From sequence record PV805631.1: a stretch of DNA of 64,000 nucleotides; one strand, 5' to 3'. Numbering within the stretch: position 1 is the first letter of the stretch; each line of letters opens with the position of its first letter. The notes under the pieces were generated by a model. It had not been told where the DNA came from. It searched no databases and was given only the letters and a program-made list of their open reading frames with translations. The position numbers and the translations under genes are program-made. Shown piece after piece: positions 10,456-55,992 of the stretch. The stretch is from a phage.

Positions 10456-10932
10456 ATGAACTGGCATGAACTATTTGTTTATAGCAATGGTTCCCTTTAC
10501 TGGAAAGTAAGTAGGGGCTGCGTAAAAGCAGGTGCCATTGCTGGTTGTTTGGATAACAGCGGGTATTTGCGTGTTAAATGTAATAGAAAAAATCATTTAG
10601 TTCACCGCATAATTTATGAAATGGAAATTGGTCCAATTCCTGATGGTATGCAGGTAGACCATATTGACCACAATAGGCTAAATAATTACCCAAGTAATTT
10701 CCGTTTAGTAACAAACATGGTTAATAGTAAAAACCAAACCATGAGAGTAACAAATACATCAGGTGTGACAGGAGTATACTGGCACACTCGGGATAAAATT
10801 TGGACTGCCCATATAAATGACAATGGTAAACAAATTTACTTAGGAAAATTTAACAGTAAACAAGAAGCCATTTCAGCCAGAAAGGAAGCAGAAAAATTAT
10901 TGGGCTACCATATAAATCATGGGGAACCCTAA
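10456..10932 (+). CDS. HNH homing endonuclease with AP2-like domain
   Basis: QVDHIDHNRLNN...NFRLVT motif plus NTSGVTGVYW AP2-like segment; lies between the ATPase and vWA genes. Confidence 0.7.
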   Translation: MNWHELFVYSNGSLYWKVSRGCVKAGAIAGCLDNSGYLRVKCNRKNHLVHRIIYEMEIGPIPDGMQVDHIDHNRLNNYPSNFRLVTNMVNSKNQTMRVTNTSGVTGVYWHTRDKIWTAHINDNGKQIYLGKFNSKQEAISARKEAEKLLGYHINHGEP

Positions 10933-12107: not shown

Positions 12108-12613
12108 TGATTGTTAATGGTAATTCTCTATACCGTTCATCTCAATTGCTGGATGTCCCAGACCGTAAGGTATCCGAGCATGGTGTAAGCTATGGATTAG
12201 GTGAAGCTGGTTATGATATTCGTATCAAACAAGACATTACCTTCTATCGCTTATTTGGGTTAATTCCAATGGTGAAAATCGTCGATGGAAAACAAGTATC
12301 ACGCCATCTCGGTAAATTCGCATTAGCTTCAGCAATTGAGAAGTTCAACATGTCACCCTCGTGTGTAGCTATCGTTCACGATAAGTCCACATGGGCAAGA
12401 CGTGCATTATCTGTGTTCAATACCGTAATAGAACCAGGATGGAAAGGGTATCTTACCCTTGAACTGGTCTATCACGGTCGTAAGAAACTGCATATCCCGG
12501 CTGGTGCTGGGATAGCTCAAGTATTATTTCATCTGGTTCAAGAGCCTGCTAATTACAACGGCAAGTATCAGAATCAGGAGGACAAACCAGTAGCTGCAAG
12601 AAGCAGTAAATAA
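12107..12613 (+). CDS. dCTP deaminase-like protein (dUTPase superfamily)
   Basis: IEPGWKGYLTLEL resembles the dCTP-deaminase/dUTPase signature. Confidence 0.55.
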   Translation: MIVNGNSLYRSSQLLDVPDRKVSEHGVSYGLGEAGYDIRIKQDITFYRLFGLIPMVKIVDGKQVSRHLGKFALASAIEKFNMSPSCVAIVHDKSTWARRALSVFNTVIEPGWKGYLTLELVYHGRKKLHIPAGAGIAQVLFHLVQEPANYNGKYQNQEDKPVAARSSK

Positions 12614-12622
12614 GGAAACAAC

Positions 12623-12823
12623 ATGTCTGTATTTCAAGTAACTCCTGTTGATAGTACCCAACGTAAAACTATTGTTGCAACTAATGTAGTAGATGTAGAT
12701 GAAACCCCAGCTGGTGCTGTAATCCATCTGATTGATGGGCGAACTGTAACTGTAAAAGAAAGCTATCGTTCAGTACGTGGTTACGTCCGTAAAGCTTTAG
12801 CTGCTGTCTCTGATGCAGAGTAA
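12623..12823 (+). CDS. Hypothetical protein (66 aa)
   Basis: ORF track; ATG start with purine-rich GGAAAC upstream. Confidence 0.4.
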   Translation: MSVFQVTPVDSTQRKTIVATNVVDVDETPAGAVIHLIDGRTVTVKESYRSVRGYVRKALAAVSDAE

Positions 12824-12896
12824 GTAGCTGCCTAAATAGCCCAACTATGCTGGGCTATTTGTGAAGAAACTAACTCAACCTCACATAGGAACCATC

Positions 12897-13157
12897 ATGG
12901 AATCTTTAGCAGCAATCCTCGTTCTGTTATTTGCACTTGCTATATACCTTATCCCTACTATTATTGCTTTTGCACGAGGCCATGCCTCTAAGTGGGGCAT
13001 TGGTATACTCAATATCGTATTAGGCTGGTCTTTAGTCTTCTGGGTAGTAGCACTGATTTGGTCACTGTCTAACAAAGGGCAGTCTCAGACTACAATCGTT
13101 AACGTTGGCAGTGGTAACCAGTACAACGTGTCTCAAACGAGCCAGTCTGATAAGTAA
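12897..13157 (+). CDS. Superinfection-immunity (Imm-like) membrane protein candidate
   Basis: Two TM helices and YLIPTIIAFARGH...GWSLVFWVVALIWSL, resembling the Imm_superinfect family from memory; ATG at 12897 has AGGAA upstream. Confidence 0.45.
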   Translation: MESLAAILVLLFALAIYLIPTIIAFARGHASKWGIGILNIVLGWSLVFWVVALIWSLSNKGQSQTTIVNVGSGNQYNVSQTSQSDK

Positions 13158-13231
13158 CTAACCTAAGCATCATTGTATAGTGGTGCTTGTGGAAGTTGCT
13201 TCCAGCTCATTACTTATCCATCTCCTAATCC

Positions 13232-13259
13232 AAGCCCACCTAACCCGTGGGCTTTTTTT
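13232..13259 (+). terminator. Intrinsic terminator (AAGCCCAC ... GTGGGCTT + TTTTT)
   Basis: Read directly. Confidence 0.7.
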
Positions 13260-13280
13260 AATTATAGGTAGTAAATACTA

Positions 13281-13724
13281 ATGCGTATCCCATTCCTAAG
13301 AAAAAGGGAACGGAATCCTGTTCTTTATAATAAAGGCATAGAGGATGAGTATGAACTCAACCGTAAGGCCCGTTCCTACGCAGCAAAATTATTCATGGGG
13401 ACTAGCAACCCTAATAGATTACTGGACTTTGTTTTCGAACAAGTCTTTATCATATACAGCTTAGCTATGTCTGCTGGTTCACAAGAAGTAAGTGATAAGG
13501 CAAGATATGCTCTCTGTATGCTCCGGAAAGAGTATGAAGCCCTCCTGTATGAAGACTTGTACTCCTTTAAGAAAGAAACCGCTGTAGCGTGTTCTGTGGC
13601 TCTTACTGAAGGTATAGCAGTATTACAAGAACTACCTCGTAGTGAGTTTAAGCTGGTATATGCCCAGGCCAGGAGAATTACAGAAAACCGAAGTGGTATT
13701 ACCAACTATCTAAGGTCATTCTAA
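13281..13724 (+). CDS. Hypothetical protein (147 aa)
   Basis: ORF track; TAATG overlap with the next gene. Confidence 0.5.
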   Translation: MRIPFLRKRERNPVLYNKGIEDEYELNRKARSYAAKLFMGTSNPNRLLDFVFEQVFIIYSLAMSAGSQEVSDKARYALCMLRKEYEALLYEDLYSFKKETAVACSVALTEGIAVLQELPRSEFKLVYAQARRITENRSGITNYLRSF

Positions 13725-26075: not shown

Positions 26076-26545
26076 TGACTAAGCTCTCCGGTGGCCTTAA
26101 TAACTACTATGTAGTTTCAATTAAGAATCCCCAACGGAAAGAGCAAGAGCCATATCAAGCAGAGTGTGAGGATATTATCCAAGCACTGGGCATGACCTTC
26201 GATGAAGGTTGTGCCTTTAAAGCTCTATGGCGAAATGCTGCTGCCCGTATGGGTAATGGTAAACCAGGTAATAAAGCCCTGTATGACTGTGAGAAGCTAG
26301 TTCATTACGCTAATCGTATTCTCGCTAAAGAAAGGTTAGCGGAGGAACCAGCAGTCAAAGATGTCCTTAACTCTGTGTGTAATAATTGGATTTACTCTAA
26401 CGAGAAACCTCTGCTCACTAAACCATTTACGTTTATTGAGGTTATCTTCAAAGACCAGACTATCCCTATTCCAAGCACTTACCTTGCGAATAACATTGGA
26501 GCAATTCCTTGGGATAATGTACAGAAATACAGGATTACTTACTGA
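26075..26545 (+). CDS. Hypothetical protein (156 aa)
   Basis: ORF track. Confidence 0.5.
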   Translation: MTKLSGGLNNYYVVSIKNPQRKEQEPYQAECEDIIQALGMTFDEGCAFKALWRNAAARMGNGKPGNKALYDCEKLVHYANRILAKERLAEEPAVKDVLNSVCNNWIYSNEKPLLTKPFTFIEVIFKDQTIPIPSTYLANNIGAIPWDNVQKYRITY

Positions 26546-26616
26546 TGAAGATAACCAACAACCATGATGTCTCACTAGCTCTGGCTGTATGGCTATTGCA
26601 TGATGAGTAACTAATT

Positions 26617-54771: not shown

Positions 54772-55992
54772 TTAAAGACTACCCGGTACTGGGAGTTTAG
54801 CGAAATCTTCATCACTCATTGCGAGTGGGTTTACAATAGGTGTTGCTTTACGTGTAGCAGCCCGATTAAGGGAAGCTGCTTTAGCTTGCTCACTGTTAGC
54901 CAGAGTCTGCTTAGGTTGTGCTACACGCACTACCGGCTGAACCACTGGCTTAACTGCTTGTACCGGTTCTGGCTTAGCCGCTCGGTTAAATGCCCCTTGC
55001 TGTGTAAGGAGGTTACCGACGTGGTTATAAGCCTGAATGAACGGAGTACCTACCGGAATCTGGCCTAACATTTGAAGACGGTTCACTTCGTTTGCAATGG
55101 TGTCATAAATACCATTCTCACGTTGTTCGTGAATAGTCTGGAGTAGGCCACGATTCTGGTAAAGAGCTTCTTTACTGGCAGCATCCCATGTCGAGCCGAT
55201 AACACCTAATGTAGCTTGTCCTTCTTGAGTAGACTTTAAGTCGTCAATTTCGGTTGCAAAATCTGCTTCGGTGTCGGTAACACGGTGATTGCCACCCTGG
55301 TAGTTAATTTCTTCATCTGGGTTAAAGTCCAGAGGATCTGTACCAGAGTCTTTGAGCAACTTCTTAATGGCTTCAGGATTCTTTTTATCCAGGTCAATAA
55401 GGAAAGAAAGTTTATCCTCATCCATTAAACCGTTGTTCTGTAACATCAGCATTACCTTACGGTAAGGCTTTAGTTCTTGCATCTTGCGAGTATAGTTAGC
55501 ACCCATCTGCATCAGGCTAATGGCCTCCTCCGGTGAACGGGGAGTAATCACTTTGCCGTTAGCTTTAAAAGGAGCCATCAACTTCTCGTAACCTTCTTTA
55601 TAGTTGAAGTCAGCAGGCAGACCTTCAGACTGTTTGCCTTCTTCTTTCTGTTCCTGGCCTGGTTCAGTAGTAGAAGGTTCAGCTTTAGTAATCGGCTCAC
55701 CGTTACTATCAACTTCTGTGTCAACAACTTTATCATCAACTTTATCAGAAGTTAAAGAATTTGCTGAATCTTCTTCATCAGGTTCGGCTTCAGGGGGGGT
55801 TTCTTCGGTTGGTAGGTCTTCAACAGCAGGGGTGTCAACTTCTTCTTCAGGAGTCTGTACGCCGTTGGTTTCTGGGTTGTTCTGAGTGGAAGTATCTTCC
55901 TCAGCAATAATTGCTGGGGCTTCCATATTCAGAATCTCATCATCCGACATTGCGAGAATGTCGGAAGCTGTGGTTGCAGCTTCCGTAGTCAT
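54772..55992 (-). CDS. Scaffolding-like protein
   Basis: Acidic low-complexity N-terminus; between portal and capsid genes. Confidence 0.4.
   Translation of the reverse strand: MTTEAATTASDILAMSDDEILNMEAPAIIAEEDTSTQNNPETNGVQTPEEEVDTPAVEDLPTEETPPEAEPDEEDSANSLTSDKVDDKVVDTEVDSNGEPITKAEPSTTEPGQEQKEEGKQSEGLPADFNYKEGYEKLMAPFKANGKVITPRSPEEAISLMQMGANYTRKMQELKPYRKVMLMLQNNGLMDEDKLSFLIDLDKKNPEAIKKLLKDSGTDPLDFNPDEEINYQGGNHRVTDTEADFATEIDDLKSTQEGQATLGVIGSTWDAASKEALYQNRGLLQTIHEQRENGIYDTIANEVNRLQMLGQIPVGTPFIQAYNHVGNLLTQQGAFNRAAKPEPVQAVKPVVQPVVRVAQPKQTLANSEQAKAASLNRAATRKATPIVNPLAMSDEDFAKLPVPGSL

Follow-up and report, generated by a model that had tools for sequence, protein, structure and literature searches.

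Does the small open reading frame that begins at position 12897 of the window (the whole 64,000-nucleotide stretch of phage DNA analyzed here, PV805631.1) encode a protein that excludes the DNA of superinfecting phages and, if so, what would such a protein act upon in a phage that carries no tape measure protein? An earlier note, made from the letters of the sequence, had read an 86-aa protein with two transmembrane helices in this frame and noted its likeness to the Imm_superinfect (T4 Imm) family. The 3.8-kb stretch around the frame is 100% identical to the genome of Escherichia phage vB_EcoP_G7C (HQ259105/NC_015933), an N4-like podovirus (Schitoviridae, Enquatrovirinae, Gamaleyavirus); window coordinates equal G7C record coordinates minus 461. 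The gene is G7C gp27.1. GenBank labels it “putative membrane immunity protein”; the RefSeq label is “immunity to superinfection”, with a similarity to Imm of the T4-like phage JS98 mentioned. The Imm annotation is already known from HQ259105, from its RefSeq copy NC_015933 and from dozens of related genomes, and, since gp27.1 already bore an immunity label, the earlier note recovered an existing annotation from raw sequence. As an annotation, the assignment adds nothing. The sole part of the finding with some potential for novelty is the question of the target, i.e., whether gp27.1 acts on phages of its own kind or on others.

The gp27.1 reading frame and its family

The frame opens with an ATG at 12897 and extends over 261 nt, that is, 86 codons and a stop. 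Its translation, MESLAAILVLLFALAIYLIPTIIAFARGHASKWGIGILNIVLGWSLVFWVVALIWSLSNKGQSQTTIVNVGSGNQYNVSQTSQSDK, confirms the length given previously and contains both strings quoted then, YLIPTIIAFARGH and GWSLVFWVVALIWSL. The features at the start of the gene are as follows:

12897–13157, plus strand: imm-like coding sequence, G7C gp27.1, 86 aa plus stop codon, 100% identical to 13358–13618 of HQ259105/NC_015933
12887–12890, plus strand: Shine-Dalgarno sequence AGGA, 6 nt 5′ of the ATG, read from the sequence

The leader of imm is nearly invariant in four other Gamaleyaviruses, as determined by ortholog comparison. An in-frame GTG at 12861 would extend the product to 98 aa; this codon has no Shine-Dalgarno sequence, and the basic N-terminus that would result (MKK..) conflicts with an N-out topology. 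In T4 Imm, the Imm protein of phage Mangalitsa and many other relatives, the opening “ME..” coincides exactly with the ATG at 12897. Since the GTG lacks a Shine-Dalgarno sequence and the homologs start at the ATG, the 86-aa form was kept, and the GTG is probably not the real start of gp27.1. An in-frame upstream alternative start is common to G7C imm (the 12861–12896 extension) and T4 imm, and a 94-aa form of T4 Imm has been reported (bioRxiv 10.64898/2026.03.06.709160).

Membership of gp27.1 in the Imm family is almost certain. The Pfam check proposed in the earlier note was run, and PF14373 (Imm_superinfect) matched the protein above the cut-off and over the full domain (60.7 bits, cut-off 27.9, E 1.2e-16; residues 16–57, corresponding to profile positions 1–42 of 42). 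PHROG 1039 (phrog_1039, “immunity to superinfection”) matched with an E-value of 1.9e-33. T4 Imm, whose gene was taken from NC_000866, positions 26373–26624, scores 58.2 bits on the same Pfam model, and a composition-adjusted BLASTP comparison aligns 69 aa of the two proteins, from residue 1 of each, with 33% identity, 57% positives and an E-value of 1e-10. Such a similarity is well above what chance would give. A tblastn search with gp27.1 also reached the imm genes of many T4-like phages. Together with the annotation of the G7C record, the Pfam, PHROG and BLASTP matches bear out the likeness to T4 Imm.

The matched region can be described as follows:

12942–13067, plus strand: PF14373 domain region, residues 16–57, with Y17, P20, A24, R27, H29, I35, N39, G43, W44, W49 and W55

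As can be seen, the family motif Y-x-x-P...A-x-x-R-x-H...I-x-x-x-N-x-x-x-G-W...W-x5-W is fully present. Each of the motif residues is conserved in 73–82 of 82 aligned relatives: none varies at P20 or W55, Y17, A24, R27 (78 of 82), H29, I35, N39, G43 and W49 are each at least 90% conserved, and W44 is kept in 73. Many members also share a Q-T-[VT]-I-V-N-V-like stretch (the columns of residues 64–70) about 8 residues after the last helix and outside the 42-residue Pfam model; its T4 counterpart is QVIIIRE.

A HMMER search over 1.84 billion representative proteins placed 8341 clusters (at 50% identity) in the PF14373 family at E ≤ 1e-3, of which 93 reach E ≤ 1e-10; the 82 aligned relatives come from this search. 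Many of these clusters have extra domains, and lengths reach ~350 aa. In a family this large, the function of all members may not necessarily be given by the one member that has been tested. NCBIfam models gave only meaningless sub-threshold matches to gp27.1.

The two transmembrane helices of the earlier reading correspond to two hydrophobic stretches in a Kyte-Doolittle plot, at about residues 3–26 and 33–57, which flank a basic loop, R27-G-H-A-S-K32; a polar tail rich in Q, S, T and N follows the second stretch. Combined with an AlphaFold2 model and ortholog translations, hydropathy defines the following regions:

12900–12974, plus strand: first hydrophobic span, residues 2–26, with predicted helices at 2–17 and 19–26 and a kink at P20 (hydropathy and AlphaFold2)
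12990–13067, plus strand: second hydrophobic span, residues 32–57, with predicted helices at 32–42 and 46–57 (hydropathy and AlphaFold2)
13068–13154, plus strand: polar C-terminal tail, residues 58–86, pLDDT 58–77 (ortholog translations)

The model was computed from the alignment of 82 relatives, with the T4 and Mangalitsa rows left out. Its mean pLDDT is 85.7, and above 90 for residues 1–60; it comprises four helices, the second span being broken by a G43-W44-S45 loop, and a disordered tail. A compact four-helix membrane fold is therefore predicted for gp27.1. We infer that the protein would reside in the inner membrane and that, by the positive-inside rule, its acidic N-terminus would be outside and the R27/H29/K32 loop inside. 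A structural search of BFVD with the model returned six matches (TM 0.56–0.61; probability 1.0 for the top five), four of which bear the name superinfection immunity protein, while two are unnamed. The PDB copies that we searched, which did not include the T4 tape measure–Imm entry cited in bioRxiv 10.64898/2026.03.06.709160, held no match to the model by fold, and by sequence only a spurious match to the designed repeat protein 8erw.

Organization and history of the imm locus

On the plus strand, imm lies between gp27, which follows the dCTP deaminase gene gp26, and gp29/ThyX, in a neighborhood of genes for nucleotide metabolism and replication. Orthologs occupy the same locus in Bas96, PhAPEC7, pSb-1 and Bp4. 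The corresponding slot of N4 holds gp28, and N4 itself lacks imm. We considered whether N4 gp28 could be a divergent Imm and ruled this out, as it is a soluble, unrelated 80-aa protein without a Pfam match. G7C (13158–13280) does not have the gp28 homolog that Bas96, PhAPEC7, pSb-1 and Bp4 carry between imm and gp29, so that in G7C gp29 comes directly after the imm terminator. Two hairpins bracket the gene:

12834–12860, plus strand: hairpin between gp27 and imm, AAATAGCCCA-actatgc-TGGGCTATTT, annotated as a stem_loop in NC_015933
13232–13261, plus strand: intrinsic-terminator-like hairpin with a T run, 3′ of imm (terminator scan)

In relatives the stem of the upstream hairpin is conserved and its loop varies. 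The terminator scan did not call this hairpin; because its T tract is only weak, it is likely a leaky terminator or an RNA structure. The downstream hairpin (13232–13254) has an 8-bp stem with 5 GC pairs and is followed by TTTTTAATTA; this terminator is conserved in relatives and upstream of N4 gp28, and it is annotated as a terminator in PhAPEC7. A scan for σ70 promoters found no site in the 73-nt spacer upstream of imm, the counts being at chance level, and read-through of the weak upstream hairpin is therefore likely. By synteny, the N4 counterpart of the locus is the middle block transcribed by RNAPII (PMC13434306). Since the synteny is with this block, we infer that imm would be expressed in the pre-late phase (middle class), probably via read-through.

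Several further observations concern the sequences around the gene. An Rfam search of 12500–13500 gave only sub-threshold chance matches, on the terminator. Two more small hairpins precede the terminator in the imm 3′ untranslated region (13168–13203): GCATCA..TGGTGC and a perfect GGAAG-TTG-CTTCC (13191–13203; 5-bp stem, 3-nt loop), the latter with a conserved stem and a variable loop in relatives. In stem and loop size it resembles the N4 virion RNA polymerase promoter hairpins. The pattern GGAAG-NNN-CTTCC is expected 0.05 times per window, and its single other copy (55888–55900) lies inside a coding region; there is thus no evidence that it belongs to a family of repeated signals. HNH homing-endonuclease genes are placed differently around the locus among Gamaleyaviruses: in G7C, gp24.1 stands before gp25 (10456–10932), in Bas96 such a gene lies between the dCTP deaminase gene and gp27 (1777–2343 in the compared segment), and in Bp4 and pSb-1 one splits or precedes gp25. 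The imm region would seem to be a hotspot at which endonuclease genes move.

Among five Gamaleyaviruses, the dN/dS ratio of the imm core (Nei-Gojobori, codons 1–62) is 0.03–0.19, with 5–19 synonymous versus 2–8 non-synonymous changes per pair, and the same codons compared with those of Mangalitsa give 0.06–0.21. Such ratios show purifying selection on a genuine gene. Of the records in the phage collection, 52 encode at least 80% of gp27.1, and 85 close relatives came from a word-indexed protein search, each with PF14373 and many on contigs of ~72 kb, the size of a Gamaleyavirus genome.

The Gamaleyavirus homologs (Bas96, PhAPEC7, pSb-1, Bp4, St11Ph5, Moo19 and others) are orthologs, 79–97% identical to gp27.1, at the same locus. 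They share the G7C leader and the flanking hairpins, and all are annotated as superinfection or membrane immunity proteins. Their tails come in two alleles, which give proteins of 86 and 80 aa; the alleles (13083–13154, residues 63–86) read ..SQTTIVNVGSGNQYNVSQTSQSDK in G7C and Bas96 and ..NQVTNVTVVQTNGGSKAE in PhAPEC7 and pSb-1, look unrelated to each other, and the G7C type resembles the tail of the Mangalitsa protein. This pattern suggests that the tail may have been exchanged as a module. In Bp4, imm is frameshifted and cut off after about residue 60, leaving a truncated 67-aa copy; it follows that either at least the tail is dispensable or the Bp4 copy is defective.

Outside the genus, the closest relative is the Imm protein of Mangalitsa (QEG07836; 64% identity over 80 aa), and the next relatives come from phage-like metagenomic contexts. 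Any exchange between the G7C and Mangalitsa lineages was not recent, because synonymous sites are saturated. Since the closest relative belongs to a myovirus, further relatives are metagenomic and phage-like, and the GC content of imm is not different from that of its flanks, the Gamaleyavirus lineage seems to have acquired the gene horizontally, and long ago.

Probable superinfection exclusion and its possible targets

T4 Imm is reported to co-purify from membranes with a tape measure protein (gp29) construct, its loop faces a hydrophobic patch of the helical-bundle domain of the tape measure, and T4 exclusion is reduced by the Imm substitutions W50A (loop) and R33A (helical core) (bioRxiv 10.64898/2026.03.06.709160). 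In the BLASTP alignment, T4 R33 and W50 correspond to gp27.1 R27 and W44, and the AlphaFold2 model places W44 in the loop that joins the third and fourth helices; W50 of T4 Imm also lies in a loop. gp27.1 therefore has the features currently known to be important for the activity of T4 Imm. By analogy with T4 Imm, gp27.1 would be a small inner-membrane protein, made in the pre-late phase of infection, that would keep the genome of a phage arriving later from passing through the inner membrane, presumably by engaging a membrane-inserting channel protein of the incoming phage.

Judged from homology alone, we consider it rather likely that gp27.1 excludes superinfecting phage DNA. The family match, the presence of R27 and W44, the structural model, the selection on the gene, its distribution and its position in the locus all count for this explanation. 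Against it count the absence of imm from N4, the truncation in Bp4 and the size and diversity of the family, as well as the fact that the reported type of T4 Imm partner, a tape measure protein, is absent from G7C. Lysis inhibition, which in T4 requires superinfecting DNA that has been excluded, is reportedly absent from G7C (PMC12642591), and this likewise counts against exclusion. According to the same 2025 preprint, no superinfection exclusion system has been characterized for N4 (PMC12642591). Our literature search found no paper in which the Imm of a Gamaleyavirus or an N4-like phage had been put to an experimental test; a transcriptomics paper that associates an Imm homolog with “cell lysis” deals with another phage, offers no evidence for the link, and was set aside.

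Because G7C has no tape measure protein, two kinds of target were considered. N4-type phages cross the envelope by means of the ejection proteins gp52, gp51 and gp50, with no tape measure, and the proposed inner-membrane element of N4 is formed by the hydrophobic C-terminus of gp51 and the N-terminal domain of gp50 (PMC13434306). The inner-membrane part of such an ejectosome could be the target (the gp51 C-terminus and/or the gp50 N-terminal domain), in which case gp27.1 would exclude phages of its own kind; this we regard as possible, if on balance doubtful. Alternatively, gp27.1 would bind the tape measure proteins of competing myoviruses or siphoviruses, and it may act on tape-measure-bearing competitors only, as a cross-family weapon of a podovirus.

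Next to exclusion, the reading that survives best is that gp27.1 has the Imm fold and a membrane location but does something else in G7C, which we consider rather unlikely. The protein could, for example, shield the inner membrane of the infected cell from depolarization or leakage caused by further adsorbing virions, with no change in which phage replicates, or it could modulate the timing of lysis or membrane physiology. Historically, T4 Imm was also connected with resistance to being killed by phage ghosts, which speaks for this reading. The huge family with its diverse architectures, N4 without imm, the lack of lysis inhibition in G7C and a G7C virion that itself carries no tape measure target all count for a different job. 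However, T4 Imm, the only member of the family that has been tested, prevents genomes from entering, and gp27.1 retains both residues important for that activity; no lysis gene adjoins imm, its neighbors being nucleotide-metabolism genes; and membrane protection and exclusion would probably be two read-outs of the same molecular act.

We consider it very improbable that imm is a decaying or neutral passenger, i.e., a moron brought in by horizontal transfer and devoid of current function. Such an origin would account for the N4 slot without imm, for hairpins that bracket the gene like an inserted cassette, for the finding that, beyond the genus, the most similar protein comes from a myovirus family unrelated to it (Mangalitsa, 64% identity) and for the truncated copy in Bp4. 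It is contradicted by the strong purifying selection on residues 1–62 (dN/dS 0.03–0.19) and by the intact frame, Shine-Dalgarno sequence and motif in G7C and dozens of Gamaleyavirus genomes and metagenomic contigs.

The remaining explanation, that PF14373 matched a generic small transmembrane peptide on account of its hydrophobic composition, has a negligible probability: weak matches to unrelated membrane families are indeed common for short transmembrane proteins, and four such sub-threshold Pfam matches (DUF3302, DUF3810, DUF2975 and DUF6594) were seen here as membrane-protein noise, but a PF14373 score 33 bits over the curated cut-off with the entire profile covered, the composition-adjusted E-value of 1e-10 against T4 Imm and the 90–100% conservation in relatives of the polar and aromatic residues Y17, P20, R27, H29, N39, G43, W49 and W55 refute it, and a match caused by composition alone is ruled out because gp27.1 carries every conserved residue of the family.

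G7C offers a test case of modest value, in which the Imm fold and the same key residues are under selection in a phage without a tape measure. The phages that G7C Imm excludes would reveal how target specificity is set in a family of >8000 clusters at 50% identity, and G7C Imm could identify the superinfection exclusion system of N4-like phages. Should self-exclusion prove true, the Imm fold would act in general against phage proteins that form channels in the inner membrane, instead of being a binder specific to the tape measure, and gp27.1 would be the first defined superinfection exclusion factor of N4-like phages. The question is also relevant to the design of phage cocktails in which Gamaleyaviruses are mixed with T-even or other phages.

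gp27.1 beside known exclusion proteins

The system closest to hand is T4 Imm (imm, NP_049660), which at 83 aa is of similar size to gp27.1 and belongs to the same Pfam family with nearly the same score. The two proteins share their layout: an “ME..” start, a hydrophobic helix with a Y-x-x-P kink, a basic R-G-(H/S) loop, a G/N-W loop, a W-x5-W-S helix and a polar tail. Beyond a short V/I-rich motif, the C-terminal tails of the two show no relation. Both T4 and G7C are virulent coliphages that carry imm among nucleotide-metabolism genes, which are pre-late in T4 and would be so in G7C. However, T4 is a contractile-tailed myovirus whose Imm is reported to bind the tape measure gp29, whereas G7C is an N4-like podovirus that has none; T4 additionally possesses Sp (spackle) and an RI/T lysis-inhibition circuit that makes use of excluded DNA.

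The Imm of Mangalitsa shares the G7C-type tail (..VVNVGSNNVSNVSQ..) and has L in place of G7C W44, and the phage, a Chaseviridae myovirus, has a tape measure, unlike G7C.

HK97 gp15 and P22 SieA resemble Imm in outline, being phage inner-membrane proteins that stop genome translocation, and HK97 gp15 has been proposed to act through the tape measure (cited in bioRxiv 10.64898/2026.03.06.709160). They show no sequence relationship to gp27.1, their families being absent from its Pfam and PHROG matches. Both are expressed from prophages, whereas gp27.1 would be made, like T4 Imm, during lytic infection.
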